Notes under the pieces: generated by a model
Database searches by the model: none
Told to the model about the DNA's origin: nothing
The model's input: only the letters and a program-made list of their open reading frames with translations
Virus record (IMG/VR): IMGVR_UViG_3300028048_000080
Coordinates: 1 to 64,000 of that record
DNA: 64,000 bases
Origin: a virus
Taxonomy: Duplodnaviria; Caudoviricetes
Reading direction: 5' to 3' (one strand)
Shown: positions 6,065 through 60,284 of the stretch, one piece after another
Numbering within the stretch: the stretch's first letter is position 1
How the letters are laid out: each line of letters opens with the position of its first letter
Translations under genes and position numbers: made by a program

Positions 6065-6084
6065 TGGTAACACCTCGCAAGTAT

Positions 6085-6090
6085 ATTACC
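6085..6090 (-). promoter_or_regulatory. putative phage late promoter core GGTAAT
   Basis: GGTAATATAC; the same hexamer occurs in 7 intergenic gaps, always on the coding strand upstream of a start. Confidence 0.6.
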
Positions 6091-11912: not shown

Positions 11913-11948
11913 GTTTTGCACCTGCCTTTTGTATATTTCTAAATATCT

Positions 11949-11954
11949 ATTACC
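11949..11954 (-). promoter_or_regulatory. putative late promoter core GGTAAT
   Basis: GGTAATAGATATTTAG between a terminator and the 8445..11912 start. Confidence 0.6.
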
Positions 11955-18681: not shown

Positions 18682-18728
18682 CTATATGTCACGTCCTTTT
18701 TAGGTTTCGACTAATTACTACAATATTT

Positions 18729-18734
18729 ATTACC
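18729..18734 (-). promoter_or_regulatory. putative late promoter core GGTAAT
   Basis: GGTAATAAATATTGTAG upstream of the fibre cassette. Confidence 0.6.
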
Positions 18735-31406: not shown

Positions 31407-31409
31407 TGT

Positions 31410-31907
31410 TTACACCTCCATCTGGAAATTATAGATTTCCTTATTACCATTATAGATATATACGTTTACGTTTTGCCATGAGAAAACGTGGCCATACATT
31501 TCCTGTTTGCGGACAATTACTGACGGATCATCCAACACGAAAGATACCTGTTCCAATACGGCATCCCGTACTTCGTTCAAAACGGCTTCCGAAGTTACAT
31601 CCAGATGCTTGGCGCGCACCACTCTTGATGCTGCGCGAGTGAGCAGCAGAACGCGTTGCCGAAGCTCTTCATCGCCTCCACAAGAATCGATAGAATTTTT
31701 ACGGGAAACTCTGTCGGTGTCTATAAAAAACATCAGTGGCGGCGCTACGTTATCACTCGGATTCTCATAGCTTTGGCTGGGACCGGTCATAAAAGAAAGT
31801 TTAACGGCAGGATTGTCGGTATTTTTCCAGGATAACTTCAATGAGCACAGTGGGTCATGACGGCTCGCTACGAGATCTCCAGCGTTATTTATTTTTAGGT
31901 CAATCAT
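31410..31907 (-). CDS. putative baseplate wedge / sheath-initiator (gp25-like) protein, 165 aa
   Basis: MIDLKINNAGDL start and ELRQRVLL segment; canonical position just before baseplate J. Confidence 0.55.
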   Translation of the reverse strand: MIDLKINNAGDLVASRHDPLCSLKLSWKNTDNPAVKLSFMTGPSQSYENPSDNVAPPLMFFIDTDRVSRKNSIDSCGGDEELRQRVLLLTRAASRVVRAKHLDVTSEAVLNEVRDAVLEQVSFVLDDPSVIVRKQEMYGHVFSWQNVNVYIYNGNKEIYNFQMEV

Positions 31908-31919
31908 ATTTTAAGTCAC

Positions 31920-33137: not shown

Positions 33138-33153
33138 AACATATCTCCTTTAA

Positions 33154-34482: not shown

Positions 34483-34490
34483 GCTCTCTC

Positions 34491-34862
34491 CTACATGATA
34501 CAGCCGCCAGGGGGCTGACACCCCCCGCCGTCACTGAATACATCCTGACGAAGCTGTCGTTTGGAACGCACGTCCATGGCATAGTTGCCGACGTGACGAG
34601 CCACTACTACGCAGGTATCGCCAGTATCTTCTACTACTACTGCGTCATTAACTGCCGGAAACCAGTCTGCACCGTTACCGTACAATCTGACGACTACATT
34701 ATCTCTATTACGTTTCCTACCGCCCTTATCGATGTATTTTATACTAACCGTATTATTCGATTCGTCGGAGTCCGTTACGACACCGATGGTCGTAATACCC
34801 ACGTTAACGCGGGCGGCGGGATTTACTACTTCACTCTGCAGTTTGTCTTTCAATGCTGCCAT
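34491..34862 (-). CDS. baseplate spike OB-fold protein (gp5/gpV N-terminal-like), 123 aa
   Basis: GVVT...NTVSIKY...WFPAVNDAVVV pattern; lies between the hub and the lysozyme. Confidence 0.65.
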   Translation of the reverse strand: MAALKDKLQSEVVNPAARVNVGITTIGVVTDSDESNNTVSIKYIDKGGRKRNRDNVVVRLYGNGADWFPAVNDAVVVEDTGDTCVVVARHVGNYAMDVRSKRQLRQDVFSDGGGCQPPGGCIM

Positions 34863-37800
34863 TTACGATATCCCCCAATTCTTTGTCCTTTTTCTGGCCT
34901 TCTTCCGATATCCGAATAAGATAATCGGTGTCATCTTCTCCTTCACGGCGAGCAACATCTTCACTTTCCGTTTTTTCAGATTTTTGTTCGACGCTTCCGC
35001 GCTCCTCTCCATTGCCAGAAACTTTAGCCATACGAACTACGATGGCTACTTTCGTTTTATCCGTGCTATCTACGGAAACGTCAAATAAGGCCGTTTCGCC
35101 CAAACCATTTTTCTCGGCGTCAGCTTTAATCTCATCCTGTAAGTCCTTGATAGCGGAAGCGAGCGGAGTTACTGCGTTATCCACGCCTTGTAGGATAAAG
35201 GTATGCCCCGCCGCGGCCAACGACTGAGTATCGCCGATTCTGAGCGCTGACTCAAGAGCTATGAACGAACTCTTGGTCTGCTCGTAAGATTCGTACGGGT
35301 CAGACGAGTTGGCGGCCGGCATATAGTTCTTAGCCCGTCGAATAATCTCGTACAAGATATTCAAAGCATCGCGACTAAGAAGAGGAACGTCGTATACTAT
35401 CGCGCCGTTATCCAGCTTATATTTAATAACTTTGACGTAGGTTTCTTCGCCACGGATTCTCATAATCTGGCTGTCTACGTAAGCACCTTCATTAAGTGCC
35501 GGAGTTTCGTGGATAATCTTGAAGAACCCCTCTTCGCTGTATGGACGCAAACGGTTATCCGAGCTGATAAGATAGAAGTTTTTAAGCTTAGGGTCGGTAA
35601 GATACTTGTTAATATCGAGCATAGCAAAATGTTTATACGCCGACAGCACTTCATTTCCTTTAGAGAAGTCCGCTCTCGGAGTCATCTGCATAGCGCGGTA
35701 ATCATTCTTTAATTGCGCGCCGGCCTGAGGAGAAGAAAAGCTCGTACGCAAAGACTCGTTGAAGTCATCTTTATTCATGGTCGGGTCGCCATTCTCATCG
35801 ATGGTGCCCGCTTTATGTGCCGCGCTGTTCTTGGCCATAGACCACACTTCCGGATCATCAAAGATGGCCGCCGAGAAGTTAGCTATCGCCATAGACGGGT
35901 CATTAGTATTGACTCCCAACGCTTCACCTTGAGCATCTTTGCCTGGGGCTTCGATGCCGGTCATGCCATTAAAGATTTTGGTGTACGGGCCGTTATCTCC
36001 GAAGGAAGGTGTGCCGTATACCATGCCCTTAGTACCCGCTATGCCAGCTACCCAGGCTCTGCCGTAACGCTTCAGCGGATATAAAGTGATTACTTGGAGG
36101 TTACGAGCATGCTTTTTGAAAAGATTCGTCACAAGATTACCGACAGTTTCTATCACTACAGTTTCGGCGATTGCCAAGGCGGCGCCCGAAATAAGACCTG
36201 CTCCGGTGCCTAACGGACCAACTACCGACCCGATCAATGCCCCGGCCGCGGCGCGTGTAGCCAATTTAGTAAGTAATTTTTCTCCTGCGCTCACGGCCAT
36301 GCCGGCCGCTTTAGGTACTAATTTTCCGCCTGCTTTCGCAAGATTCCAAGCTCCGGCAGCAACAGAATTTTTGGCGGCCAAACTTTCAGCTTTTGCTATG
36401 GTACTGCCAAAGAATTTCTGCCCCACTTGTTTAAGAGCGGCTGCGTCGGAAGCTTTAGTAGCACCACTTTTCCAAATACGGAGAATATTGCCGACTACGG
36501 CTGTATGCGTAGCCCAGGTTATCGCACTCATATCATACCAATGATGAGAAGCGGCTTCGGACTTATCCTGCACCGTATTGATGCAGTCGGGGGATATGGT
36601 GGTAATAAAACCGTTCTCGAGAGACATATGATGCACGACTTCTTTAACCGTGCATTGCCCGCTAATGCCCGTATAGGTATCGTTAATACTGATACGATCA
36701 TGAGGCTTAACGCTAGTGTCGCCTAGAATTACCAGGTCGCCGGCATACATTTCTTTCATCGAATCCTTAAGAGCCGATGCCGTCATGCGCCATGCTATAG
36801 ACTTGGCATTCATGTTATGACCGCCGGTCAAATTAGGATTCCAACAGGAGTTGTCTTCGTCGTTACTGAAAAGCTCATCTACTATCTCGAAGGAAGTCAA
36901 GAAATTAAGTCCGCAAGCTCCGATGTACGGGACGCCTTTAGCGTATAGCTGCGTATCCACTATCATAGATTTCTGATTTTCGGGATAGATGTCAAAGTCG
37001 GCATACAGGGGGCCAACTTTATGCTGTTCTTTATTGTTAGCGGTGGCGGCTACCTGATAAAGCCCCGTAGCGGTGGTCTTCATATTTTGAGAAGTAGCCG
37101 TGATACCATTGCCGATTATATCGCAAGCGGAGCTATAGACGTGGAACTGTTGGAACGGTTTACGTTTTTCGCGAATTACTCCGCTGGTGGACATATAGGA
37201 GTAAGCGTAGTAATAACGCGGCGCACCAACGAAAACGGTCGAACGAAAATCAAATGGCGCAACGGCCGCGATAAAGTCAGGCATTACGCTGCGGCAGATA
37301 TTAATAACGTCCCAAGGGGATTTGCCGAAGACATCGAAGGAAATACTGGGAGCCTGGTCAAACAGCGCTCCTCCATCAGATTCTTCGTCCCATACCGGAG
37401 TTGGCAGAGCGTCAAAGATATTCTGAGTAGGCTCGCCACTGGCTATTATATCTTTGAAATCCTTATCGCCGAAATGGTATATACCGTACGGATTGTCGCC
37501 TAAAAGGTCAGGACGGCCGAAATTCTTAAGCGTTCGAGCAATCCAACCACCTTCCGTGGTAAGCATGTCGTTGATGATATCTTTAGGGTTATTGCCGTTA
37601 GAAAGCCATTTTGCATCTTGGCCAATCTCGTGTCCTTCCATTTCTTCCATTATGGGATTAGTGAGTTCAACGCCGTCACCTTGAGCTACTATGTTAATAG
37701 TAGCTTCCGCGTTAATCTCGGCTATACTGCCGTTAAAGATGATGGGAAGCATAGCAGCGTTAGAACCATATCCGGCGCGCAGATGGATTCTGGCGCCGGC

Positions 37801-40800
37801 GCGAAGATTGAGCTGGTCGAGCACACCGCTGGTACGAGTACGTTTTTCTTCCTCGTCTTCGCCCAGAGTAGAAGGAGAAAACATTGAACGGAAAACATCG
37901 TAGGCAGAACTTTCTTTAGCGCGAAGTCTCGTATCTTCCTCGGTAGTTTCTGACTGATAAATATTAGTCAGCACGATATTGGCCGTATCCGCGGGATTCT
38001 TTCTATCCTTAATTACGTCGAACGACAAGATATTGGTGGAATTATAGAAGTTATCGTGAAGTTTATAGCTGCCCAGCTCACGTCCTTCGTCGATAAGCAT
38101 CATATAATAGGTAGGAAATGCTCTAAGCATGCGACCGCGTGCATCGTAGACAATCATGTCGTGGCACGAATGCATCATGTACTGCTTCGGATCATCGGCA
38201 GCTTTAATGTAAAGCTGATTATCCATCTGCTGTACTTTCCGGCTACTCGGAGCACTGGGACGAACACCGGAAGCAATTTTGTTTTCCTGTCGCCCGACCC
38301 CAGCCAGAGCCAAGTTGGACTTGCGCATACCGGTGGACAATTTGTCATCCGGTGAAACCGGGGTAGATGGAACGGATACGCCATGCAAATATTCGTTGAG
38401 TCCTCGGTAATCACGTTTATCAATACGGTCACGAAGCATCTTGTTGCCGTCCGAGAGAGCGAGCATGGAGCATACCCACATCTTGCCGGCGTCGATAGCG
38501 TAAGCATTCTTGGTAAAGAATGTCATATGGTCGCGCAATTCAGCATCTGCCTGAGAAGCCGGAATCTTGTTGCGTTCTTCCGCTTTACGGATTTCTCCTT
38601 CAGCCTTAGTAACTTTACGGAGAATATCTCCGTTGATAGAAGGTAAAGCCCTTTTAAGAATTAAGCGGCGGAGCCAATAGAGCATGTTACGCATATAAGC
38701 GAATGCACAGTACTTGGGGCTGTTAATGCACCCTTGTTTATATAAGCGGATAGTGTCTACCGGTTGATAACGGTAGTAGCGGTCAAGAAGATAACGAGAA
38801 GCATTAAGAGGGCTCTTCTCTTTTTCCTCATCGCTCCACACGTCCACGGGATTTTCACCCGTTACCTGTAAGAATTCTTCTGGAGTATACTGGCGAATAT
38901 TGAATGCGCCAAACATACTAGCCTCTTCGATAGCTTCCGCGAGGGTGCTGGCAGATGCGGCCTGAGCCATATTCTGCGTGCCGACCGGAACTTTAACGCC
39001 CATGTAGTCAGGAGAGGGCATCCAATCGATAGCTTTTTTCTTGGAGGAGTATTCCTTAGAACCACTGGCGGAGCATGCCGCCGCGAATACGATATCTTCC
39101 GTAATTGAGCGGAACGCTTCTGTACGGTCAATATTCAATAGCTCAAAAATCTCGATAACTTCAGGGGTGCTCAAGAAGGCTCCTACGCCGAGCCGGATAT
39201 CGGCCTTAACTGAATCAAAGCTAGGTTTTAAATCCTGGTCGCTTTGTTTCTTGTCAAAATAGCTATTGCGGCAAGCACTTTCCTTTGGAGCCTCTAACGT
39301 AATGGGAACGTCGGTGAGATATTTGGCTATCTTTTCGGCTGCTGTATTAGCGTTGGCCAGTTGTCCGATTACCCATGCGCCTTCAGGCATCGTCCGCCCT
39401 TTTTGCGTCCCAGGAACTTGCGATGTATCATCGGTAGCCTTAACCTGCGTGGTATCATCCGTGGATTTAACCTGCGTAGTATCATCGGTAGCTTTAACCT
39501 GAGAAGTATCGTTGGTAGCGTCTACGTGAGGCTGTTCAAAGCTATCTTTAGCGTCATCGGCTTTTTTACGAGCGTCGTAGGATTCAGCTTCTTTCTTGTA
39601 ACGATTTTCCATGAAGACTACGCGAATATCGTTATTGATTTCCCACGCGTCGTAATCTTCTACGGCGGCACCTACACGACTTTTATCCCGAAGATTTTCA
39701 GACAATCCTTTGGCGTTAAGCTCATACTGTGAATTGAGAGCAGCTTTAGCGAATTCCGTTTGCCGTTTAGCTTCACTATTAGCAGCTATCAAATCAAACC
39801 CTTTTAATTCAGCGGGCGACATAGAGTATTGCGCGCCGGACGCATCCGTAAGCGTTCTGGTTCCGTCAATGCCTGCTTGCACTGAATTAATGATGGTTTC
39901 TCTTAATATCTGGCTGGATAAACGAGTAAGATATACGAAGTAGAAGTCAGGATCGACGTAAGTACGGTTGTCCTGGAACTTATAACGGATAAAGTCATAA
40001 CCCAGAGTGCTCATCTCGGCCAATGTGGGAAGTTCCAGGTCAGGATATAGTTCGGCGTGAGATATAGCAGTTTCGATTTCGAAGTATGACTTCATCTTCT
40101 TAGCTTGATAAACGTCAGCACGATTTTTCTTGCCTTGGGCCCAGTCAGCAATGTCGTCGGCGAATGAAGATGCGCGATAGCCGCCATTGTTTGCCTGGAT
40201 CATCTCCGCGGATTCGCGGTTGCGCAAGGTGCGGTCCATAGACTTCATGATAAGGTTAATCTGATACGTGCCGGGATGATTGTCGACCGTATTTACCGTG
40301 ACGTTATCAATCATTACTTCAGATACACCGAGAAAACGAGTGAACTCAGAATCGACTTTGATAGGATAACAGGGGATAATCTGTCGATACTTACGCATCA
40401 TCATGGTGGCGTAATCAGGCATGCTTTCGATCATCTTAACGGCATTTTTATCTGTAGTCATGATGCTGACATTGAATTCTATATCCTGGCCGCCAAGGAA
40501 CTGCGCGCAGGATTTGCCACTTTCCTGCAGATGAACGTTGCTGAACGTATTGCGGAGAGAAGCACTGATGGAAGTGATATGGAACACGCCGGTATCAATA
40601 GGTCTGAAACGCATGTTATCCAGCTGAGCTATTAACGGCGCCTTCATCCAGCCATCGGTGGAAGCTTCTCCACTGCCATCATTTTTTACTCGCGGAGAAT
40701 TCTGAAGCGTATTTAAGGCATAATCCCATACGCGAGCTTCAGGACGGGAGGTGTCAAGTCTGTCATATACGTGCTCCTGTGAATTCTTTTCGGGATCAGG

Positions 40801-43320: not shown

Positions 43321-43361
43321 AAAGAAACCCTCCCTAATCGTCCGTTTTTTACTACTTGTAT

Positions 43362-43367
43362 ATTACC
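43362..43367 (-). promoter_or_regulatory. putative late promoter core GGTAAT
   Basis: GGTAATATACAAGTAG upstream of the 2829-aa gene. Confidence 0.6.
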
Positions 43368-43386: not shown

Positions 43387-43417
43387 AAAAAGTATCAGCA
43401 CGATACTTTTTCAAAAA
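43387..43417. repeat. 31-bp palindromic element, copy 1
   Basis: AAAAAGTATC-AGCAC-GATACTTTTT-CAAAAA, identical to 52351..52381. Confidence 0.95.
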
Positions 43418-43446: not shown

Positions 43447-46400
43447 TTATGCTACGCCGATAGCGTGAGCTACCATACGATTAACTTGTAGCTGAGATAA
43501 ACTGTTGCCTACCGAAGTGCTCAGGTTAACGTTGACTGAACCAGTCTGAGGAGTCAGTCCGCTGGCCGCGTTGGAGATGGCATCCACCGCTGCCTGCTGT
43601 CCTTGGCCAGTTTGAGCGTTAATGTTGATAACGTAGCCTGAGGATGGGCCACCGCGCATTACGTTCAGATTGGAGTCGGATAATGACATCTGCTGCATGG
43701 CAATCTGATCCCCTTGGTCATTAGACATCTGCATCGCCTGAGTCTGAGCCGGAGTAGGAACATCGTGCTCTACCGAGGGGCCGGAAGCGTAGCCGGCAGT
43801 CATGAGCCCGGCAGCTATCCCGATTGCCGCGGCTATAGCTTTTCCTCCGGCTCCGCCGATGGGCGCAATATCGAGCATGCGTCCGAAAGATTTCCCGGCG
43901 CTTTCGGCCGTATCTTGCACTACGGCGCGTCGATAACGAGCGTTACGGTTCCTGGAGGCCGCTTCAGCCATCTGCTGTGCCGCATCTTCAGCGTTCTTAT
44001 GTATCGCCGTTGAAGTAGCGTTATCCAAGTCGTTAAAAGCTCCGCTGACTCCGGCTTCAGCATTCATATCATTTAATACCTGAGCTGTTTTGCCGAGTTG
44101 ACTATCTACCGAGTGACTGGAACGATAATTGAGTGGATCGGAGGCTTTTAAACCTGAGGCAGAAATACCCGTCATTAAAAGTTTTTGTTCTTTCTGGTCG
44201 ATGGTAGTGTTGCGCACGATATCACCAAAAAGCTTAGTGGTATTTTCGATAAGCTCATCGGTGTCGCCAAGCATGGCTGAACGCGGGCCAAATTCCTTTT
44301 TAGCTCTGTCCTTAAATACGCCGCCTACAAATGTTTGAAGAGCACTTGCCGCTTCTTCACGGTTTTCTCCCGTATACATTGCTTTTACGGCATCGCCCCA
44401 TACCTTCTGCAGTTCCTCAGCTCGTTTTAAGTCCGTTTCGCCGCGGGCGTTTTTACCGGTGAGAGCACCTTCCTGTAGAGCCATTAGACCGATAAGAACT
44501 TCGGCGTTTTCTTTACCCGTAAGCTTAGCTTGAGAATGAGCTATACGAGAGAATTCGAATAAGCTCTTATTCATAATACCGGCTGCTTTCTTAGAAGCCG
44601 CTTCGGTAAAACGTTCATCCATGCCCATCTGCCATTTACGATAATGCAGGGCTTCATCAAAGGCGGCGGCTTCTTCTTTGCCGTAGTTTTGAGCTACGAA
44701 GTTACCCATTCGCTGAACATAAAGAGCTTCATCTTTGGCCGCTCCTTTCTCAGCATCCCAGATTTTTTCAAAGTCTTCCGCGTGGCTGGTCTTATAATTT
44801 TCATTCAGCTGATCTAACAGGGCTTTATTGGTTTTTATTTCTTCCTCGGTGTATTTCTTTTCGAAGTTAACCAGTCGGTCACCATCGTAAGTATATTCCG
44901 TAAGGTTGCTAACACCGTAGGAATCATCGGCGATATGTTTCCCGTCTTTCCCCCAGTGAGATTCCTGAGGCTGGCCATACGGCGTAATATCTACCGCGTT
45001 GCGTACCATGCCCGCCTTAGCTTCTATGAAGTTATCATCGAGCAGTTTAACGTTCGTACCTTCCATGGCGCTTAAAGCACGATACGCGGCGAAGTCGACT
45101 TGGGCACGTACGGTGCGTCCATCAGCGTAAGTAATTTCGGCTTCACTCTTACGGATCATCGCGTTGATCTTATCGGAGTCATAGTCACCGTTCTGCTGGC
45201 GGAACGTCTTTAAGTTGGTACGGAATTCATCTCGACCGAGAATATCGCTAAAGTGCATATTGACGGCTTGAACCGGGTCACGAGAAACCAACGGATAACG
45301 CTGATCTACCGCGATAGTACCCTCTTTATCTAATACGCCGAGAGTCTTTTCTTTCAGCTGCTTAGCCAGTTTTTTATCGCCGCCAGCCATCTGCTCGAAC
45401 ATCTCGTCGGAATAGATAGCGTCTCTATGCTGCGTGCTGGCAAATAAGAAGCCGAGATCCATACCACTACCCTTTAAGACAGCATCTTTGGCGTTTCGGA
45501 TGTCGGCCAGTTCAGTGAATGATTTCCCGGAATCAAGGAATTTGGCATTGCCAAAAGCGCCATCTAATCCGTCGCCGAGGAACTGGAACCCCTGTGCCGT
45601 GCCGTACATGGTGCCATCCGAAATAACCGTAGTGGACGCCCGTTTGAACGTGCCGTTTTTATCGGTAGCTTCCTGCGCAACCATCGAACGGAGTTTCTCT
45701 GTCTCACGCATCAGTTCACTGCGCCGCTTCTCGTTAATATCTTGTCCGCCGCCGCGATGATTCTCATACTCGCTCGTGTACTGGTCATGCAGGCGCGTTA
45801 CGCGAGCTACCTGGCGCTGCAGCTCACTCTTACGAGCCGCGCCGGTGCTGTCTTCCTGCTGCAGCGCGGAGAATGGCAAGGCAATGGTGCGGTCACGATC
45901 CGACGTATATATCTGGCCATCTATTAAAGAGTTGGAATGCAAGTCAAGAACAATGGCCTGTCCATACAATGATTCAGCGAATTTATCATCAGTTTTATGG
46001 ATGCGAGCGTTGGTACGGAGGTCGTCGATAGACAAGCTGGTAAAGCCCAGGTTGTTCATTTCTTCCAACGAGTATTTATGACTGCGATTATATTCATGCG
46101 CGTTGGTCGAACTATTAGCTTCGATGAGGTCTAAGACTCTATTGGCGGTAGCATCTTGTACGTTGGACTTCTTCAGAGCATTAATGGCTCTCTGCGCAGT
46201 CTTTTTGTCGACCCCTTGCTCTTTGAGCCATGCCATGCCCTCTTCAGCGGTTTGGGCAGTTTCTCCGTTTTTCAGAATATGCTCAGCCCCTTGTACGCCT
46301 TTCCCCTCGTGAACGAAAGTGTCTTTCATAAAGTCATCGACGAGAGTCTGGTAGGCCAAGTCGCCATCTTTTTTAGACTTGGTAAAATCTTGGATAGCTC

Positions 46401-49400
46401 TTGAGAAGGCCGTGTCGCCGAACGCATCGGATATAGCCGTGGAAGATTTATCTATATAGTCCTTCGTATATACGGTGCTCTTCAAAGCATCAATAGTACG
46501 TTCATCTGCTTTGAAAGTGGATCTGTCTCCAGACTTACCGTAGTTATAGTTAGGCAGGACTCTAACCTGAGTGCGGGCGACTTCGTACATTACGTCGCCA
46601 TATTTGGTGGAAAGCTGGTGCATGGAATCGTGCCAGCCATCTTTGCCGCCAAAATATTTTTCCGTAACTTTGTTTAAGCCTTTAGTGCTAAGATGGCTGT
46701 CGTCAGTTACGAATTCTGCCCATTTTTTACCGTCAGTATCTTCATGGATTTTGATGCCTTTCATGGCACCGTTTTTCTCCATGATGTCCTTGGCTTCTTC
46801 TATGGAAAAACCCTTAAGATCGATTAATCCGTTAAACGTAGCTTCGAATGCGGAAGGGCCACCATGTTTTTTATGACCGGCCGCCGTATGACCGAACATG
46901 TCAATAGCTTCTTTTATGCCTATATCTCTTAGAGCTTCGTCCATAACGGTATTGGTACGGTAACGCTCTTCGAGTAAAGCGGAAGCAAACTTCGCCACAC
47001 CGCCAAAATTCTTGTTAATAATTTCTTCTATCTTGGCGTCGTTAAGAGCTAATAGTCGTTCACGCTTGGCTTTGTCTTTTTCCGCCATCGCTTTGCTGAG
47101 CGTCAGACCATGAACGAAAGCGGCAAATCCCGTACCTTTTACGGTTCCGGTATCAAACAATTCTTGAATAAAGTCGACGTGAATTTGCCGGCCGATAAGC
47201 TTTTCTGCGTTCAGCTCTTTTAATGTGGAAGCGATTTTCTTGTCGACTTCTTGTGAACCTTGGCCAAGCCCGTTCATCAAGACATGGCTCATCTGTTTTT
47301 CGCTATAGTCGGTCAGCTTAGTGTGGCCATCTATATCCAGGCTTTTAACGTAGAAGTCGTGAGAGAACGGCGAATTTTCCTTAGAGAAAAGCGCCCAGGC
47401 AGCCTGCTCGCGCTCAGCCCCCGTAAGAGATTTGTTAATATTCTGGTTGATATAATCGCTTACGGCCTCATCGGTCATTTCTTGACCGTTTTTAAAGATG
47501 CCTGACCTTAAAAGCCCTGTCTGCTTAGCCCTTACGGTTTCGTCTTTATACGTAGCGCTATTAGAAGCTTTAGTAAACAGTTCTTCTCCAGATTCTACGT
47601 ATACGCCTGCGTTCGATTCATAATGGGCCATACCGTCGGCGTCAAAAGTAATTTTGCCCTGAGCTTTCAATAGCTTTTCGAAATTACGGCTATTTTCGAT
47701 ATCGGAGCGGGCAATTTTGCCGAAAGCAACATGCTGTTCAAAATGCTCGGAGGTTAATCCGGCATCTGCGGCGCGGGCCGAAATGGCGCCCGATGCTTCA
47801 TCCGTAAAGATGGACATCATCTGACGATATTCGAAGGAGTCCTCGCCCAGCTTATCGGCAGCATATCGCATTAAGCGGCGCATACTTTCCGAATCAGCGG
47901 AGAGCTTATTGACCACCATGGTGTCGGCAACGTTATGGCCAAGCTTCTCGGAAATAGCATTCATATGCATGTGTTCCTGCATGGATTCGAATGCTGCTCC
48001 AAAACGTACGCCACGGCCTTCCATGATTTTTGCGGCGCGTTCTACATTGAACGGGATGGCCCTATCCATCTTAGTAGAAATATGGTTAAGGTCTTTGTCA
48101 TAGGACATTAATCCGCGATAACTGTCGGATAGAATATTTACCTGACCACGGGTGTCACCGGCATGGCTCAGGATATCCTGAAAAGCGCCTGTGGTGTCGC
48201 CTTCAAAGAGGTCGAGAAATTCTGCGCGCCCAGAGTCAATACTATCGACGATATACGGAGTCAAAATATGCAGTGTGCGCATATATGCTGCCGCGAGAGA
48301 ACTCGATGCATTCTTTAACGAATTGATTTCATCGACTCTTTTAGCGTGTTTAATACCTTCATCGCCGATTTTCTCCAAGTGCTCAATCATGATATCGGCA
48401 GCCTGCGTACCTTCGTCGCGAAGTTTTTGTATTATCTCTTTGCGGTCTTTTTGCCCTATCGTATGTAAAGTTTCGTCTATATTAATAACGTTAGCGAGAT
48501 TACGGTCTTGGCGGTCGCCAAAATAATCAGCTGAGTGCTGCCGATATCTCGCGCTTCGCATTCCGAAAATGCCTGATACTTCTTCGGCAAGATTACCGTT
48601 TTCCCTTCCGCGGTTGAACATGAAGTTCATTAGGTTCTCGCCATCTCTAGCGAGACGACCTTCTTCCGTGGTATAAATTAAAGCGTTGTGCTTGGAAGAA
48701 TAATAGAGGCCTACTTCGTCGCCGAACTCTTGTCCGTTAGCCAGGCGGCGCTTAAAAGTACCGTTGGAAAATACGTTGCGGTCAAGACCGATTACGGTGT
48801 AGTTATTAGCCCTTACATCCTGCGCCGTATTATAGACCCAGAACTGGCCATAATCTTTGTTATAGCCTATAGCGCCGCCGTGAGAATAAATGCCGCCAAT
48901 AATCTGTTCAAGCATTTCTTGGCTGGCGCCGTAGCGGGCACGCTGCATCTTGTAAATCTTACGCGCGTCTCTCTCACTATAACCAGCGGTGTCTACCAGC
49001 TTCTGGATAAACTCCTGCTCTTCTTTTTCGGTTCCTTGCGATACATCGAAGCCGTTATTGAAAACTATGTTTTTATTAATGTCAGAAGCGACGCCCTTGG
49101 CCCAAGCTAGAAAATCCTGCCCTTCCTTGGACTCTTTTTTCCAAACAGGTTTACCGTTTTCAGCAACAGGCTTGAAACTAGTAGCAACCTGAAAATCGAT
49201 GCCGGTAGCTTTGGAACTAACGGCGAGAATCTCATCGTCCGTCAAACCGCCGTTAACCAAGTTGTCGATAATATCGAACTGCTCGGTGGTAGACAATATG
49301 CCAGCCCATACATTACGTTTTCTTCTTTCACGCATTAAATGAGTGATCTTGCCGCCGGCGATAGCAGCAGTGTCGTTTTCAATATCGACGAGATATTCTT

Positions 49401-52329
49401 GCCCGCGACCATCGGCGATGTCATCCAGTTTTATAATCCCTTGATCCAAGAGACGCTGTTGAAAGTTAGCCAAGAGAGTAAGTTTTTCATCTTCTTGAGC
49501 GTGCTCTATTTCGTTAGCGGAACGTCCCATTTGCCGCATCAAAGATTTGACTACGCCGTAATCAGCGTTGATATCGATTGAAGCCATAGTGCTTCCGGAC
49601 AAAGATTTAACCCCGTAGAATCCTTCGATATCCACTTGGAACTTATTCAGTTCGCTGGCAACGCGGGGAAGGACTTGATAACCTGCGCCGGCCTTGCCGA
49701 CTTTTTCTATAGCGGCTTCTTCAAACATATCCCGAATTTCGTGATAAAAGAATTGAGCTCTGTCATCACTTAAGGATATGTCTTTGCCATAATGGTCACG
49801 CACGGCTGTTAAAGAGGCTTTGATTAACCCCTTGTTTGCGCGCGCCCATTTTTCGAGCGACGCCATATTCTCCATCGTGTCGGCATAAGCCTTACGTTGT
49901 CCCGTCTCTTTGTCGATATAGCCAAAGTAGTCCTGAAGAGAACCGTCATATTCATTGAATTTAACTTCTACCCCAGAAAGTTGCTTCTCTTCTATCTCTT
50001 TCGTCTTAGCTTTAACCTTATCACGAAATTCTTGGCGAAGATCTTCAATGGTGCTTTCGTCCGCCTGATTTTTTAAAAGCCCTTTTTCCTTCAGCTTTTC
50101 ATTAACATATTTATCCATGTCGTCGACATACTGCATGAGCCTTTCGTCACGACTGGCAATTTTATCACGAGCTTTGCGCCCGGCAGCATCATTAAACGCT
50201 CTATCAGATATTTCCTCTAAATCTTTGAGAGAAGCTGTCTTGTATTTACGGTTGCCCTCAGCGTCTATAACCACCGTGCTAAGCATGTCCCGATATTCTT
50301 GGGGAACATTTTCCATTAAGAATTCTTTGTCGTTCCCCGTTTTTTTAGCACCCGCTAAGGTGAATAAGTTATTAACGGTATCCATAAGATCCTGATACTT
50401 GCCGACCAGAACGATGTCTCGGTGTGCCGAAGCCAACTTAGATTTGGTGTGCGTAGTCCAGCGCATAGCAAACAAGTCTCCGCCAGCCATATTTTCATGA
50501 TTGGAAAGTATAGGCATTAGCGGGGAATCAGATTCTATCTTGGAAATACCTGAAAGCTCGTATAATCCGCGGCGATGTATACCGGGCGCCTGATAAAGTG
50601 CCCGTGCGCCTCCTTTTTCGCCGATAGCTACGCCGTCAGAAGACCACCACTGGTTAGTGTCTTTGTCGAAAGCGAAAGACATTACGCCATGCTTATGCGG
50701 ATCCCAGGTAGAATTATTAGCGAAGAAAAGCTGCGTACTGTTGCCCTTTAATTTAACGGCGTTTTTGGTAGCTTTTTTAGTGATAAACGAATTAGAGGAG
50801 TTAGGGTCATAGAATCCGCTGCCGAATACTACGCGCATAAGGTCGATGGCATCAGCTTCAGCGATATGGGTTTGACCGCTATGGATAGCTTCCGGCGAAA
50901 GACCTTTTTTAATAGCCGTCGCCGCCAGGATTGTCTGCTGAGTTTTAGGAGTCTCTTTCTGCGTTTTCATCCACTTCATGAGCGAATCCGTCTTGTCCTT
51001 GTCGCCCATGTAATTGCTCCAGAACGTATACGGGTCACCCATGTGTTCTTTAGGAAGAACCATTGCGTCGAGAGCGTTATTAAAATGCAGATGGTCGCCG
51101 CCAAGAATGCTACTCATTTCCTTACGGAATGCTTCAGTAGTTAAATCCTTATTATGCAGGAGATAATCGAGCTGAGGAATATCGAAGCGATTGCCATTAT
51201 AGCTTACTGCCGTAAGGTTATTGGCATAAATGTTACGGATGGCCGAGGCAAGCTCTTTTTCCCATCCGAACATTTCGTTGCCTACGCGGGTCTTTTCTTG
51301 GTACTCGCCGACTTCACGGAGAAGATTAGCGCCCTTAATCATTTCTTCTATCGTGCCGTTCGCGCCAGTTATATCCTTCTGCTCGGAGAAAGAAGAAAAT
51401 CTAACTACACCGTCTTTGGCTTCATCCCAGTTCACGTGCGTATATTTAGCGCCATGCAAAGCGAGACGGTTAAGGGTTACAAGTTCACCTTCTGCCATCT
51501 TTTCGCCACGAGAAAAACGGTCGATGAGGTTAAGCATATTCTTATGCTCTTTGCCGGACAAACCAATAATAGAACCGTAAGTTTTCTTAATATTGAAGTC
51601 GCCCGTCTTAAAATCGCCGAAGCCATCAGAGAAAGAAAACTCGGTAATACGCTGCATCTTATCGTATAACTTATCACCGTGACGACCGAAGGTTTCCAAG
51701 TCGAATGCTACGGCGCGCCCTTTTTGGGCGACGATGTTTTCGACGGCTTTTACTGATTCGTGTGGAGCGCCTTTAGTATAGGGGGTAGTTTTTTGATAGA
51801 TAAAATCGTATCCCGTGGTCTTTCGACTTTTCCCGTAAGTAAAAGCTTTGGAAAAAGTACGCACATTAAGACCCGAATACAATTTAACTAACTGCTCGTC
51901 AATTTTAGGAAATTCACTGAACTTCCTGACGGCTGCGTGTGGAACCACTATAGTAGCGCCTTGCGGTTGAGCTAAGTCAGCTATACGATACGCCAAGAAA
52001 GGAGCTATACTATGGTTTTCTTGCAGAGCAAGTTTTTTCCGCATTCGCTCCAACTCGCCACTGTGTTTTTCTCTCCACCAATTCCGATCTTGATTGTATA
52101 GCCAGACACTATTGTCTAAGTCTTTGATGATATCGGCATCGGCTTCGTCGCCTATATCCTTAAAAAATTTTAAGCTTTCTTGTTGTTCGTGAAAAAGATC
52201 TCTTTCGATGTGTTGTCTAGCATGTTTTCGCTCGTCCATCTTTTTTTGGAACGATTCCGAATTAGTAAATTTATTTAATTCAGCCTGCATACGAGCCTGC
52301 CGTCTTGCGTTGTCGCTGAAAAATGCCAT
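43447..52329 (-). CDS. putative single-chain two-barrel (virion) RNA polymerase fused to an N-terminal DEDDh 3'-5' exonuclease, 2960 aa
   Basis: Exonuclease motifs FDLET (D210,E212), YNGNRFD (D383), HIAEAD (H488,D493). Beta-like DEASGAISARA, GVYVESGEELFTK...KDETVR and KLTDYSEK. Beta'-like QRYP (R2344) and NGDYDSD (2380-2386). Confidence 0.75.
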   Translation of the reverse strand: MAFFSDNARRQARMQAELNKFTNSESFQKKMDERKHARQHIERDLFHEQQESLKFFKDIGDEADADIIKDLDNSVWLYNQDRNWWREKHSGELERMRKKLALQENHSIAPFLAYRIADLAQPQGATIVVPHAAVRKFSEFPKIDEQLVKLYSGLNVRTFSKAFTYGKSRKTTGYDFIYQKTTPYTKGAPHESVKAVENIVAQKGRAVAFDLETFGRHGDKLYDKMQRITEFSFSDGFGDFKTGDFNIKKTYGSIIGLSGKEHKNMLNLIDRFSRGEKMAEGELVTLNRLALHGAKYTHVNWDEAKDGVVRFSSFSEQKDITGANGTIEEMIKGANLLREVGEYQEKTRVGNEMFGWEKELASAIRNIYANNLTAVSYNGNRFDIPQLDYLLHNKDLTTEAFRKEMSSILGGDHLHFNNALDAMVLPKEHMGDPYTFWSNYMGDKDKTDSLMKWMKTQKETPKTQQTILAATAIKKGLSPEAIHSGQTHIAEADAIDLMRVVFGSGFYDPNSSNSFITKKATKNAVKLKGNSTQLFFANNSTWDPHKHGVMSFAFDKDTNQWWSSDGVAIGEKGGARALYQAPGIHRRGLYELSGISKIESDSPLMPILSNHENMAGGDLFAMRWTTHTKSKLASAHRDIVLVGKYQDLMDTVNNLFTLAGAKKTGNDKEFLMENVPQEYRDMLSTVVIDAEGNRKYKTASLKDLEEISDRAFNDAAGRKARDKIASRDERLMQYVDDMDKYVNEKLKEKGLLKNQADESTIEDLRQEFRDKVKAKTKEIEEKQLSGVEVKFNEYDGSLQDYFGYIDKETGQRKAYADTMENMASLEKWARANKGLIKASLTAVRDHYGKDISLSDDRAQFFYHEIRDMFEEAAIEKVGKAGAGYQVLPRVASELNKFQVDIEGFYGVKSLSGSTMASIDINADYGVVKSLMRQMGRSANEIEHAQEDEKLTLLANFQQRLLDQGIIKLDDIADGRGQEYLVDIENDTAAIAGGKITHLMRERRKRNVWAGILSTTEQFDIIDNLVNGGLTDDEILAVSSKATGIDFQVATSFKPVAENGKPVWKKESKEGQDFLAWAKGVASDINKNIVFNNGFDVSQGTEKEEQEFIQKLVDTAGYSERDARKIYKMQRARYGASQEMLEQIIGGIYSHGGAIGYNKDYGQFWVYNTAQDVRANNYTVIGLDRNVFSNGTFKRRLANGQEFGDEVGLYYSSKHNALIYTTEEGRLARDGENLMNFMFNRGRENGNLAEEVSGIFGMRSARYRQHSADYFGDRQDRNLANVINIDETLHTIGQKDRKEIIQKLRDEGTQAADIMIEHLEKIGDEGIKHAKRVDEINSLKNASSSLAAAYMRTLHILTPYIVDSIDSGRAEFLDLFEGDTTGAFQDILSHAGDTRGQVNILSDSYRGLMSYDKDLNHISTKMDRAIPFNVERAAKIMEGRGVRFGAAFESMQEHMHMNAISEKLGHNVADTMVVNKLSADSESMRRLMRYAADKLGEDSFEYRQMMSIFTDEASGAISARAADAGLTSEHFEQHVAFGKIARSDIENSRNFEKLLKAQGKITFDADGMAHYESNAGVYVESGEELFTKASNSATYKDETVRAKQTGLLRSGIFKNGQEMTDEAVSDYINQNINKSLTGAEREQAAWALFSKENSPFSHDFYVKSLDIDGHTKLTDYSEKQMSHVLMNGLGQGSQEVDKKIASTLKELNAEKLIGRQIHVDFIQELFDTGTVKGTGFAAFVHGLTLSKAMAEKDKAKRERLLALNDAKIEEIINKNFGGVAKFASALLEERYRTNTVMDEALRDIGIKEAIDMFGHTAAGHKKHGGPSAFEATFNGLIDLKGFSIEEAKDIMEKNGAMKGIKIHEDTDGKKWAEFVTDDSHLSTKGLNKVTEKYFGGKDGWHDSMHQLSTKYGDVMYEVARTQVRVLPNYNYGKSGDRSTFKADERTIDALKSTVYTKDYIDKSSTAISDAFGDTAFSRAIQDFTKSKKDGDLAYQTLVDDFMKDTFVHEGKGVQGAEHILKNGETAQTAEEGMAWLKEQGVDKKTAQRAINALKKSNVQDATANRVLDLIEANSSTNAHEYNRSHKYSLEEMNNLGFTSLSIDDLRTNARIHKTDDKFAESLYGQAIVLDLHSNSLIDGQIYTSDRDRTIALPFSALQQEDSTGAARKSELQRQVARVTRLHDQYTSEYENHRGGGQDINEKRRSELMRETEKLRSMVAQEATDKNGTFKRASTTVISDGTMYGTAQGFQFLGDGLDGAFGNAKFLDSGKSFTELADIRNAKDAVLKGSGMDLGFLFASTQHRDAIYSDEMFEQMAGGDKKLAKQLKEKTLGVLDKEGTIAVDQRYPLVSRDPVQAVNMHFSDILGRDEFRTNLKTFRQQNGDYDSDKINAMIRKSEAEITYADGRTVRAQVDFAAYRALSAMEGTNVKLLDDNFIEAKAGMVRNAVDITPYGQPQESHWGKDGKHIADDSYGVSNLTEYTYDGDRLVNFEKKYTEEEIKTNKALLDQLNENYKTSHAEDFEKIWDAEKGAAKDEALYVQRMGNFVAQNYGKEEAAAFDEALHYRKWQMGMDERFTEAASKKAAGIMNKSLFEFSRIAHSQAKLTGKENAEVLIGLMALQEGALTGKNARGETDLKRAEELQKVWGDAVKAMYTGENREEAASALQTFVGGVFKDRAKKEFGPRSAMLGDTDELIENTTKLFGDIVRNTTIDQKEQKLLMTGISASGLKASDPLNYRSSHSVDSQLGKTAQVLNDMNAEAGVSGAFNDLDNATSTAIHKNAEDAAQQMAEAASRNRNARYRRAVVQDTAESAGKSFGRMLDIAPIGGAGGKAIAAAIGIAAGLMTAGYASGPSVEHDVPTPAQTQAMQMSNDQGDQIAMQQMSLSDSNLNVMRGGPSSGYVININAQTGQGQQAAVDAISNAASGLTPQTGSVNVNLSTSVGNSLSQLQVNRMVAHAIGVA

Positions 52330-52350: not shown

Positions 52351-52381
52351 AAAAAGTATCAGCACGATACTTTTTCAAAAA
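52351..52381. repeat. 31-bp palindromic element, copy 2
   Basis: Identical to 43387..43417 and in the same orientation; lies between the GGTAAT motif and the SD of the 2960-aa gene. Confidence 0.95.
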
Positions 52382-52419: not shown

Positions 52420-52444
52420 AAAAACCCTGGATTATTCCAGGGTT
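52420..52444 (-). terminator. intrinsic terminator
   Basis: AACCCTGGA-ATAA-TCCAGGGTTTTT overlapping the stop of the 2195-aa gene. Confidence 0.85.
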
Positions 52445-55400
52445 AATAAGAGCTCTGCATAGATAGAGAGTTTTCGACCATCTTCTGTTCGTGACGCATA
52501 CCCATCATCTGTTTAACAGCGGCCCATATGGTAGTACCGCCGCCGGTAGGTCCGGCTTCCACGGAAATGTCGACACCTTTAAGTCCGGCGCCCTTGAGCA
52601 CATCTTCCATGTAGTTTTTTACGGCGGCTTCATTATGGTCACGGCCGCCACCTCGGAAGTTTACCGTAGGAGCGTTGATTACTTTTTCATCTCTGACTTG
52701 AGAATCGTAGTAGCCAAAGTCCGAAAGATTCATCGCTTCGTTTTCGATGGTCTTAACCTCAATATTATTCAAATCATACTGAGGAGCCCATCCTGCCCAG
52801 TTGGCTACGGGCAGTTCATGCTTAGCGAAAAATGTTTCATTATCTTCCTGCTCGTCCACCGTCTGTCCCCAGGCAAGCTGCAGAGCTTTACGTAGGAACG
52901 GTGAAACCTTATTGAGAATAACGTTACGTTTATCTGGATTGACTTCTTTAACAAATTCCATGAAGTATTCACGATCATTCGTCGGAAGGGCGGTAACTAT
53001 TTGTGACCATGAAGAATTCTCGTCCAAAGCATACATGGTTGCGTCAGCCGCTTTCTTATAAAGAAGCGCGGTGCGCGTCCATTCGCCGCCCGGAAGAATC
53101 ATAGTGTCTCCTTCGAGATCGGCTATCTTAGCATTGAGCTTCTTCATCAGCTCGTCGCGCTGAGTGCTTGGACGGGAATTCTGTTGAAGTTTCTTCTTCA
53201 TGCTCTTGTACTTGCTAAGAGCCTTCTGGTTCTTCTCCGCTTTCTCTTGCTGAAGCTCTATGACGTCTTCGAGATCGACGTCTTCTTCTTCCTTGGCTTT
53301 TTCAGCGGCGGCATGGAATAATCCTTCGTACTTCAGATAGGTTAGTCTATCGAAGTAATCTTGCATCTCCCATTTTTCTTTAGTGCGTTCAGGAATCCAG
53401 TCACCGTTAGGGTTTTTCTTTCCGTGGTAGAGCATACCAGCCGCCGCGCCAATAGCGCCGTATATCGCACGGGTCTTGCCGTTCTTTTCGAAGAAACGCC
53501 CTACTTCCTGCCCGATATTGGCCATAGACAACGCTTCATCGACATAGCTGTTACCGCCGGTTGCGGCATGAGCTAAAGTCATCGCGGTACTGCCGTAGCG
53601 CGACCAATTCATACGGGTTCTTTCATCCAGCCCCATGGCATTACCGAGAACGTTACCGATGAAAGCGCCGCGATCGCCAAAGATAAACGCGTATGCGCCG
53701 GCATGCTTCATCCACGGAGAAGCACCTTCAAAATCGCGGGTAAAACGATAAACATTGCCGAGCATGCCAGTAAAAGCGCTGCGGTCATGTGCTGCACGTT
53801 CTAAAGCGGGCATCAGGATGGAATTAATAGGATGTTCCCATGACTGATATGGCGTACCGTATACCTGCTCTGCATCATACGACTCAAGAGGAGAACGTAC
53901 TCGTAAGAACTGGTCGGAAAGCCATGGGATATCCATATGGGCGATATACTCTGAACCCCATGCTACCATCTTCTGCACGGGGCCGTAATTAGCCAACGTT
54001 GCCGCCGCCGACGTATCACCTTTACGTATAGACGCATCGCCATTCTTAATCATTTCTTGGCCGATATTCATACCGTCAGCGAATACGGCGGCATTTAACG
54101 TGCCTTGAGCATCTTTGTTTTTACGAGCGTACTCATCTTCGTCTACCGCTACCGTTACAGTTTCGCCTACGTGAATATAACGATTCAAGACTTCTTGCGC
54201 GCTTTCCTGTGCATTGGCTTTTAAGTGAGCGCCGGCTATCTTGAATATGCGGTTGCCCGAACGGAACTTGCCGTACCCCATGACTTCTGATACGACTACC
54301 TGTTGGTATTCCAGCCCTTTACCTACTACCTTATAATCGTAGAAATCATGTTTTTTACCTTGCTGATTTACTCGGTCACGAATCTCGTCCATCTCGTCGA
54401 TAAGTGCCGGGTCAGTAATGGTCTTTTTGGCTATGTCGCGCCATAGACGATATTCGGGAGAAAACGGCGCGATATCAGCCAGTATTTTCATACGGTCAAA
54501 AGCGCCGTATTCGCCGTACTGGTCAGGATGCAACTCATTAAGTGATTCATATCCTTTACCCGGGAGACGCATTTCGCCTTTTTGAATTTGCGTGAAGGGA
54601 TCGCCGAATCTGAAACGTTCAGGGAGCCAATCAGGCATGGTATTCATAAGTGGATTATTTCTTGGCCCACGGCGATAATCGGGAACGAAACGACGAGCTA
54701 TTTCTGCTGCTGCGCCGCCCAAACCACCGAGATTTTCATCCCAGAAGGTACGGGAGAACGAAGTCATATCCTGCCCCGTAGCGATACGCTCCATATCATC
54801 GACGCCGAATCCGGTAGCGGCACCGAGAGCGTAACCGTAGATACCTGAAATCAAACGCCAGGATACGGCGGCATTTTCTACTACGCCCGCACCTTTAGTC
54901 TGGTTTATCAGCTGAGTTACGGCATCCGGGTCACTCAAGAAATCCATTGCTTGAGACGGGCGATAAGACTTCAGCTTGTCGCCGTGAATCATCGTCTCGT
55001 CTTCATCTACTCCGTAAGGCGAAACGGTTTTACCTGACTCAGCTTTACGGGAAGCAGTTACGGAAGCGAGCATTCTTCTGGGATTTACTTTAGAAGCAAG
55101 AGCGGAGAGTTCTCCCCACGCATGTGTGCTATGCATTGGATCAATGCCTCTTGCGACATCTTCCAACATATTGCCATGGACGAGCCCGTCAACTACGTCG
55201 TTGCGCGGCAGCATATCCGTTAACTCATCGTACAAAGTCTCTCCGACCAGCTCGTTATACAAAAGCTTATCTTCCGCAGAAATCTTTACATGCTGTTTTT
55301 GCGTGGTTATGACGGTACCATTGCCTTTGTCATCCGTTGCGATGACCGACCCCTGTTTCGGAGGAGGACCACCGAAGAGTTTGTAATCTATCGCTTCGAA

Positions 55401-60227: not shown

Positions 60228-60278
60228 GAGTTAGTTCTCTCCTTTTGTCTTTTACATTTTGTAATTTATACTATATCT

Positions 60279-60284
60279 ATTACC
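60279..60284 (-). promoter_or_regulatory. putative late promoter core GGTAAT
   Basis: GGTAATAGATATAG upstream of the chaperone genes. Confidence 0.6.

Follow-up and report, generated by a model that had tools for sequence, protein, structure and literature searches.

In RNA polymerases (RNAPs) of the two-barrel superfamily, two double-psi beta-barrels (DPBBs) face each other, and lysines and an Asp triad form one active site. To our knowledge, the experimental demonstration of phage-carried enzymes of this kind is confined to phiKZ-like jumbo phages, crAss-like phages and the P23-45 group of Thermus phages. Here we report on a giant gene in a 64,000-nucleotide (nt) stretch of a virus of the class Caudoviricetes (positions 1 to 64,000 of the IMG/VR record IMGVR_UViG_3300028048_000080; hereafter, the window). 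The gene is a single uninterrupted open reading frame (ORF) encoding a protein of 2960 amino acids (aa), which we refer to as Exo-RNAP (P0001), and it is the middle one of three giant genes (2195, 2960 and 2829 aa). An initial annotation, made from the sequence alone, had interpreted the protein as a highly diverged phage RNAP, and fold prediction and conservation now lend support to this interpretation. The explanation that we favour as a whole, and regard as reasonably probable, is that of a diverged polymerase which is fused to an exonuclease, carried in the virion, injected into the host and used for the first transcription.

By function, the closest known system is the tape-measure-fused virion RNAP (vRNAP) of P23-45; by structure, QDE-1 and the YonO-like enzymes are closest. 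In P23-45, as well as in P74-26, G20c and TSP4, gp96 is a two-barrel RNAP that is present in the virion as a fusion with the tape measure protein (Chaban et al. 2024, PMC10770324; PDB 8H2M/8H2N). Exo-RNAP resembles gp96 in being a predicted single-chain two-barrel polymerase within a giant protein of the tail module that also has a hydrophobic segment of the membrane type. Like gp96, it satisfies the two-barrel filter [RK]xP-x(20-100)-DxDxD (as used in PMC10770324 Supplementary Data 4), and its structural match to gp96 extends across both barrels. P23-45 also encodes a second, non-virion two-barrel RNAP, for which there is a candidate here. Nevertheless, no sequence similarity between Exo-RNAP and gp96 was detectable, and P23-45 is a siphovirus whereas the present phage is a jumbo phage with a contractile tail. 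The polymerase is N-terminal in gp96, but occupies the middle and the C-terminal half of Exo-RNAP, and the flat, clamp-less architecture of gp96 is replaced by one with a connector of approximately 640 aa that includes a predicted clamp-like part. Exo-RNAP further differs from gp96 in its N-terminal exonuclease motif set, in having no metallopeptidase domain detected by Pfam, and in having no long helical tape-measure part after the polymerase, where approximately 300 residues are left. Its metal loop reads DYDSD, in contrast to DFDGD in gp96. ME3, 0305phi8-36 and the phages of Moorella and Microcystis are absent from the survey of phages with two RNAPs by Chaban et al. (PMC10770324).

The second giant relative is gp66 of phi14:2, a crAss-like Cellulophaga phage (2180 aa; Drobysheva et al.; PDB 6VR4), a virion protein that transcribes early genes and prefers single-stranded or denatured DNA in vitro (bioRxiv 10.1101/2020.03.07.982082). 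Both gp66 and Exo-RNAP are giant proteins with the two barrels on one chain and a residue other than Gly at position 4 of the metal loop. However, they have no sequence similarity, Exo-RNAP has no PHROG match, and its genome context is not that of Crassvirales. Furthermore, gp66 belongs to a podovirus-like virion whose capsid holds the cargo proteins, only approximately 140 aa connect its two barrels, and it is without an exonuclease. QDE-1, the best solved structural match, shares with Exo-RNAP both barrels and the bridge-helix region, with the beta-like barrel ahead of the beta'-like barrel on a single chain. QDE-1 and other RNA-dependent RNA polymerases (RdRPs) of RNA interference, as well as the YonO-like RNAPs (SPbeta YonO and 0305phi8-36 gp99), are nevertheless free-standing enzymes of approximately 800-1400 aa that are not virion-associated. 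The vRNAPs of N4 and of phiKZ and AR9 represent the strategy proposed for Exo-RNAP, in which an injected polymerase starts early transcription without the host enzyme. The N4 enzyme has a T7-like palm fold and is unrelated in fold, while those of phiKZ and AR9 consist of four or five subunits packaged in the head, in contrast to the one chain encoded in a tail module here. Exo-RNAP differs from all of these systems in its sequence family, virus type (jumbo myovirus), domain order, predicted clamp-bearing connector and exonuclease fusion.

All six motifs on which the initial annotation was built were verified in the ORF at the residues given for them (Table 1). The first Asp of the DxDxD motif is located 38 residues after R2344, and DYDSD is the sole DxDxD of the whole protein. 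As approximately 0.8 such motifs are expected by chance per ~3000 residues (with ~6.5% Asp), the motif alone is no proof, and the test therefore has to come from conservation and structure. Homologues were collected by an exhaustive HMMER search with residues 1450-2500 (E<=1e-10), which recovered 28 representatives forming 28 clusters at 50% identity. Two of them are fragments, and nearly all have a length of 2485-3293 aa. Word-based searches added members with lengths to 3789 aa and contigs to 345 kb, so that 38 were collected in total. In a 31-sequence alignment with a mean column identity of 22%, R2344, P2346, D2382, D2384, D2386 and D2412 were invariant, while K1602, G1605, K1671, E1677 and K1678 were conserved in at least 90% of the sequences. 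T1509, E1511 and S1513 of the TDEAS motif (1509-1513), a proposed counterpart of the EDS motif of beta, were also conserved. K1671 and K1678 were invariant in 16 diverse members, and the two upstream lysines were kept in almost all members of the family. The R-x-P motif, followed 38 residues on by D-x-D-[S/G/A]-D, was retained in every member (38/38). The expectation that the Asp triad is intact and that it is conserved across homologues together with R-x-P and the lysines was thus borne out, and the invariance at 22% mean identity lifts the DxDxD motif above chance. The Ser noted by the initial annotation in place of the Gly of this loop is indeed present, but its description as unusual requires qualification. 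Position 4 is Ser in 33 of the 38 members, Gly in 4 and Ala in 1, which makes Ser the family norm, and residues other than Gly have precedents in the DFDID loop of phi14:2 gp66 (bioRxiv 10.1101/2020.03.07.982082) and in other viral RNAPs with DVDID, DQDPD and DNDKD loops (PMC10770324 Supplementary Data).

Standard searches passed over the polymerase, as had been anticipated. Searches of Pfam and PHROGs with the whole protein matched no polymerase, exonuclease or tape-measure family, and Pfam returned nothing for the 1051-aa core even at E<=10 and no polymerase or exonuclease family for 16 relatives. In particular, the RdRP family (PF05183) was absent from the Pfam results for the protein, the core (E<=10) and the 16 relatives. 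Neither phmmer nor the family profile retrieved anything for the polymerase region from all PDB sequences, tblastn of the protein against 50,697 phage records gave no match, and no description of this family was found among the papers searched. In 0305phi8-36, the slot of the gene is labelled 'hypothetical tape measure protein'.

The structure prediction and fold search recommended by the initial annotation were carried out using AlphaFold2, Foldseek and VIA-align, and double-psi beta-barrels were predicted. AlphaFold2 was run on the family alignment for residues 1450-2500 (model 1) and residues 1501-2700 (model 2), and the resulting models reached a mean predicted local distance difference test (pLDDT) of 83.4 and 85.6, respectively, each with a predicted template modelling score (pTM) of 0.82. 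Foldseek against the PDB produced 119 matches at E<=1e-3, and the best 50 of the 119 were all RNA polymerase beta'/A'/RpoC1 chains. When model 1 was compared with 48,161 representative chains by VIA-align, the best 18 were all two-barrel RNAPs, and generic DPBB domains appeared from rank 19. QDE-1 (7Y7P) came first with a Z of 12.1, with 231 residues aligned at a root-mean-square deviation of 3.7 Å and both barrels spanned. It was followed by P74-26 gp62, the non-virion RNAP of the P23-45 group (Z 9.7), the large subunits of Pol I, Pol II, vaccinia and archaeal RNAPs (Z 8.8-9.6), P23-45 gp96 (Z 7.7), RDR2 (Z 7.0) and phi14:2 gp66 (Z 6.3, rank 24, 297 residues aligned). With model 2, the best 13 were all RNAPs, and Z was 9.7 for QDE-1, 7.2 for gp96 and 5.6 for gp66 (390 residues aligned). 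QDE-1, gp62, gp96 and gp66 each align across both predicted barrels in one superposition. The archaeal two-barrel DNA polymerase PolD DP2 was not among the best 50 matches listed for either VIA search, which is not evidence of its absence.

The predicted architecture agrees with the proposal that a beta-like DPBB precedes a beta'-like DPBB on one chain, and the best solved matches to it are only two-barrel RNAPs. The upstream barrel (DPBB-B) contains TDEAS, K1602/G1605 and the lysine motif HTKLTDYSEKQM with K1671, E1677 and K1678. Its predicted strands in model 1 (E110-164 and E206-235) mostly have a pLDDT of 80-95, and K1671 and K1678 lie on the adjacent strands E220-224 and E229-235 of this all-beta domain. 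Single-chain polymerases align from model-1 residue 19 onwards. The alignments of large RNAP subunits begin at model-2 residue 583 (protein residue 2083) and at residues 11-35 of the subunits themselves, and the archaeal clamp domain 3qqc_A aligns to model-2 residues 545-732 (Z 6.6). Because the large subunits align there through their own N-terminal clamp and 3qqc_A matches as well, the long connector probably includes a clamp, with its C-terminal part resembling the N-terminal clamp of beta'/Rpb1. In the downstream barrel (DPBB-A; model-1 elements E889-894, E904-912, E919-923, H924-929, loop 933-937 and E938-943), R-x-P closes a strand and is followed by two strands and a short helix; the loop after these holds DxDxD, and the barrel is completed by further strands. 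We take this strand-strand-strand-helix-loop-strand layout to be collinear with the beta' barrel. Alignments of generic DPBB domains cover approximately residues 790-945 of model 1 (Z ~6). Beyond the barrel, model 2 contains a 50-residue helix at approximately residues 2551-2600 (H1051-1100), with conserved K2580, A2583, G2584 and N2587, and two further helices at approximately 2605-2626 and 2631-2653 (H1105-1126 and H1131-1153), with conserved A2617, L2618, E2620, K2626 and N2627. The tip between the latter (2624-2628; model-2 residues 1124-1128) is the only spot with a pLDDT below 50. The long helix and the helix pair with its flexible tip are candidates for a bridge helix and a trigger loop, and the alignments to QDE-1, gp96, gp66 and large RNAP subunits reach model-2 residues 1148-1200, that is, through this region.

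Given the models and the conservation, it is very likely that residues ~1500-2660 adopt a very diverged two-barrel polymerase fold. The invariant catalytic residues make it likely, at a somewhat lower level, that the protein is a catalytically active nucleotide polymerase, and the nearest structural relatives suggest DNA-dependent RNA synthesis as its probable activity. In the mechanism that we propose, the beta-like barrel would supply K1671/K1678, and the beta'-like barrel would supply R2344 and the Mg-binding D2382/D2384/D2386. The long clamp-like connector, the bridge helix and the trigger loop would complete the core. On its N-terminal side, the core appears to be joined to a 3'-5' exonuclease of the DEDDh type, and on its C-terminal side to a hydrophobic segment with a conserved tail.

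The putative exonuclease at the N-terminus has a complete set of motifs in the expected order (ExoI, D210/E212; ExoII, N378..F382-D383; ExoIII, H488..D493), with a long insert separating ExoI from ExoII, and the motif residues were invariant in 6 and in 16 diverse members. Comparisons of this region with known exonucleases gave weak statistical support. Pfam RNase_H_2 matched with an E of 0.045, below the cut-off, the family profile matched PDB exonucleases with E 0.35-2.5, and hhalign against E. coli DnaQ was not significant, with only ExoI aligned (E 0.41). A protein language-model atlas gave a score of 0.88 to RNase_T clusters, which we treat only as a lead. The motif set indicates that the N-terminal domain is probably a DEDDh exonuclease. 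DEDDh nucleases typically partner DNA polymerases, and the invariance of the motif set beside the polymerase is a point in favour of an alternative in which the virion delivers the polymerase but its main product is not mRNA. The product might then be RNA primers, double-stranded RNA or DNA (PolD-like), made for genome-end processing, replication priming or counter-defence, with the exonuclease acting on the entering end. This alternative could also draw on the preference of phi14:2 gp66 for single-stranded or denatured DNA in vitro and on QDE-1, the nearest solved structure, which PMC9508822 describes as both an RNA- and a DNA-dependent polymerase. On the other hand, only RNA polymerases stand among the best structural matches, the bridge helix and the trigger loop predicted here are elements of transcribing enzymes, and both experimentally studied phage analogues transcribe early genes. 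We therefore consider a main product other than mRNA unlikely, although it fares best among the alternatives.

At its other end, the protein carries a module that begins with a Gly/Ala-rich hydrophobic segment (~2820-2848) and continues with LSDxNLNVxRGGPxxGYVININA... The last ~80 residues are the best-conserved stretch of the family, the segment and the conserved tail are kept by every family member, and a query with residues 2780-2960 retrieved only giant proteins, all with DxDxD. The genomic setting of the gene agrees with the location in a tail module given by the initial annotation. The terminase, sheath and portal tie the phage to Moorella phage MTATph1, Bacillus phage 0305phi8-36 and Acinetobacter phage ME3, and not to Crassvirales; for the terminase and the tail sheath, the relation to MTATph1, 0305phi8-36 and its relatives, and ME3 is distant. 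The tail modules are syntenic, with sheath, tube, two chaperones, gp145, gp146 and the gp147 hub in the naming of 0305phi8-36. The upstream 2195-aa neighbour of Exo-RNAP is a homologue of gp145 (E 1e-67), and the downstream 2829-aa neighbour matches phrog_20474 (E 7e-203), as the gp147 hub would. Exo-RNAP thus occupies the gp146 "tape measure" slot, between the gp145 and gp147 homologues, and the same gene order is also found in the cultured phages ME3 and WH1. The slot is annotated as a 'hypothetical tape measure protein' in 0305phi8-36 and as a 'virion structural protein' in WH1. According to a note in its record, 0305phi8-36 gp146 was detected in virions by mass spectrometry; it was assigned as the tape measure mainly from tail length. 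The source record of the window is a 124.6-kb linear viral record judged to be approximately half complete. A homologue with 44% identity lies in identical gene order on a 253.8-kb contig, and these are therefore jumbo phages. The sequence is present in cattle-gut metagenome runs of several studies, and no RNA run is among the sequencing runs listed as containing it.

Two cultured phages have look-alikes of Exo-RNAP in this slot. In Bacillus phage vB_BceM_WH1, gp095 (L010:16592-24139:-) is a 2515-aa protein with NRYP, DHDGD 38 residues on, and the C-terminal hydrophobic segment and tail. Its N-terminal domain matches the exonuclease domain of the family by hhalign (probability 87.8%, E 3.3e-6) with the Exo motifs aligned. 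WH1 gp095 and 0305phi8-36 gp146 align only over the last ~150 residues (E 0.001), and according to Hardies et al., conservation among the tape-measure candidates of the 0305phi8-36 lineage is confined to the last 60 residues. On these grounds, the C-terminal module seems to mark the slot protein whatever is fused ahead of it. In ME3, itself a jumbo phage, the slot protein bears the signature: gp036 (L009:22172-26983:+; 1603 aa, 'hypothetical protein') shows REP...DHDQD by eye. A Foldseek search of BFVD matched an ME3 protein piece (E 8.5e-6) whose size fits gp036, while hhalign of the family against gp036 was not significant (E 0.66), so the link of gp036 to the family rests on the motif seen by eye and the size-fitting match. 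The family profile gave no significant match to gp145, gp146 or gp147 of 0305phi8-36 or to the slot genes of MTATph1, and BLASTP of Exo-RNAP against gp146 returned weak stretches only. In MTATph1, the slot (record 30512-37868; L006:12512-19868) holds a 1309-aa gene, a transposase gene and three small ORFs, and a mobile element seems to have interrupted the slot gene. In the 2195-aa neighbour of Exo-RNAP, residues ~1560-1680 look by eye like a staphylococcal-nuclease (OB-fold) domain.

A second polymerase candidate is encoded elsewhere in the genome by two adjacent genes of 680 and 728 aa (L003:5139-7181 and L003:7250-9436). The product of the 680-aa gene has DFDGD 42 residues before its end, and in the language-model atlas 29 of the 30 nearest clusters were RdRP (PF05183), with a score of 0.96. 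Searches of Pfam, PHROGs, PDB and phage records were blank for both genes, which we regard as a candidate for a split YonO/RdRP-like non-virion RNA polymerase. 0305phi8-36 carries the YonO/RdRP-like gp99, and a two-polymerase programme like that of P23-45 is plausible by analogy. No paralogue was found when the family profile was run against all ORFs of the phage's own genome, and so there is no sign of a detectable relation between Exo-RNAP and the second candidate.

From the gene position, the virion status of gp146 in 0305phi8-36 and the analogy with gp96 and gp66, we infer packaging and timing, and we lean, by a small degree, towards Exo-RNAP being carried in the virion and injected for early transcription. 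In this jumbo phage of the 0305phi8-36/ME3 supergroup, the product would be assembled into the virion through its C-terminal module, be ejected into the host with the DNA, and transcribe pre-early genes independently of the host RNA polymerase. These genes plausibly include the candidate split YonO/RdRP-like polymerase. Several observations weigh against this explanation. Searches by Pfam, PHROGs, phmmer and hmmsearch of the PDB, and tblastn connect the polymerase region by sequence with none of the known RNAP families, the fold evidence consists of predictions from a shallow alignment of 31 sequences, and VIA Z values of 8-12 are only moderately over the background quoted for the tool (typical best Z 7-8). 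The uniform top of both VIA lists and the coverage of both barrels are a stronger argument than the Z values. Furthermore, the slot proteins of 0305phi8-36 (gp146) and MTATph1 are without any DxDxD, and the fused exonuclease has no explained role in transcription. Finally, the bulky predicted core with its clamp-like connector could not pass the tail tube folded, and it would need either to travel in an unfolded state or to be kept in the head.

This bulk is also a point for another alternative, namely that Exo-RNAP is an active two-barrel polymerase which is not packaged. It would be made late with the tail genes and act in the cell, for instance as an RNA polymerase or primase for late genes or replication, and its place among the tail genes would be historical. 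The presence of the 2960-aa protein in virions is itself deduced, and the second polymerase candidate makes a division of labour possible either way. However, the gene lies strictly between homologues of virion proteins and is conserved there across distant relatives. The C-terminal segment and tail are present in every member, and the tail is the only part that WH1 gp095 shares with the virion-detected gp146; moreover, the known giant fusions of this polymerase type, gp96 and gp66, are virion proteins. An unpackaged polymerase thus appears improbable, marginally more so than a delivered polymerase with a product other than mRNA. It is very improbable that the protein is essentially structural, serving in the tail or in ejection as a tape measure or plug, with the polymerase-like core as an inactive relic kept for shape. 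In favour of this, 0305phi8-36 has its assigned tape measure in this slot and relatives fill it with proteins without DxDxD, but the Asp triad and R-x-P, together with the lysines and the bridge-helix/trigger-loop residues, would not stay invariant in a relic (31-38 sequences, ~22% identity).

An active, injected polymerase could also be elaborated into a speculative two-enzyme machine, to which we assign a low probability. The exonuclease would resect the entering linear genome end, and the polymerase would initiate on the exposed strand without a promoter or a sigma-like factor; the C-terminal segment would anchor the protein at the membrane, and transcription would help to pull the 230-250-kb genome in. 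In contractile-tailed phages, such a machine would represent a new link of DNA entry with the processing of ends and the first transcription. More generally, Exo-RNAP would add a separate and much wider family to the phage-carried polymerases, found in large contractile-tailed phages and recognised by no profile library. If the protein is active and injected, many jumbo phages considered "host-dependent" would bring the polymerase with which their infection begins, injected enzymes would repeatedly be lodged in the tape-measure slot, and the fusion of exonuclease and polymerase would be a new functional pairing. The cultured look-alikes, WH1 gp095 and ME3 gp036, make the idea directly testable.

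Table 1 Features of the Exo-RNAP gene and its surroundings; positions refer to the window unless marked as genome, and residues to Exo-RNAP.
Feature	Position	Strand	Residues	Basis or remarks
Whole Exo-RNAP gene	43447..52329	-		ORF; gene order repeated on 253.8-kb contig
DEDDh (DnaQ-like) 3'-5' exonuclease motif set	50830..51747	-	~195-500	Invariant motif residues
Predicted beta-like double-psi beta-barrel (DPBB-B)	47260..47832	-	~1500-1690	Conservation; predicted strands; RNAP alignment
Motif IFTDEASGAISARAA		-	1507-1521	
Motif GVYVESGEELFTK		-	1575-1587	
Motif YKDETVRAKQTG		-	1594-1605	
Motif HTKLTDYSEKQM	47290-47325	-	1669-1680	K1671, K1678
Inter-barrel connector	45340..47259	-	~1691-2330 (~640 aa)	RNAP subunit alignments
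Predicted beta'-like double-psi beta-barrel (DPBB-A)	45040..45339	-	~2331-2430	QRYP, NGDYDSD; conservation; predicted strands
Motif QRYP	45292-45303	-	2343-2346	R2344, P2346
Motif NGDYDSD	45172-45192	-	2380-2386	D2382, D2384, D2386
Candidate bridge helix and trigger loop	44365..44679	-		Model 2 helices; conservation
C-terminal module	43450..43887	-	~2815-2960	Sequence, conservation
26-nt palindrome GAAAAAGTATCGTGCTGATACTTTTT, upstream copy	52351..52376	-		Between GGTAATC site and ribosome-binding site, in 5' leader of Exo-RNAP gene
26-nt palindrome GAAAAAGTATCGTGCTGATACTTTTT, downstream copy	43387..43412	-		After stop codon and terminator-like hairpin; ahead of GGTAATA site of next giant gene
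GGTAATA sites	516-522, 6084-6090, 11948-11954, 18728-18734, 43361-43367, 60278-60284	-		Motif search
GGTAATC site	~52400	-		Motif search
Upstream neighbour (2195 aa)	52443-59030	-		gp145 homologue
759-aa ORF	genome 78818-81097	-		Between large terminase and portal
Second polymerase candidate, 680-aa gene	genome 89139-91181	+		
Second polymerase candidate, 728-aa gene	genome 91250-93436	+		

Several further features were recorded around the gene and in the fold searches. The 759-aa ORF in Table 1 has DFDGD at residue 315; it had no Pfam or PHROG match, and the motif may be due to chance. GGTAAT(A/C) sites occur on the coding strand in most of the larger intergenic gaps, and the gaps upstream of Exo-RNAP and the next gene are among them. 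The count of GGTAATA in the whole window is not above chance (12 vs 8.9 +/- 2.8), and any significance would lie in the placement of the sites. An exact-pattern search of the window found exactly two identical copies of the 26-nt palindrome that flanks the Exo-RNAP gene, with 0 expected by chance, and the pair may represent a shared RNA hairpin for regulation or stability. Lastly, the best viral matches in the Foldseek search of BFVD were an unnamed protein piece (A0A7R7G2L5_2, E 6.6e-11) and an uncultured siphovirus protein labelled 'minor tail protein' (A0A8S5SD80_1, E 1.6e-7), and the search also matched an uncharacterised MaMV-DC protein (Microcystis phage, E 5.5e-5). Hidden polymerases of this type may occur in other groups of phages as well.

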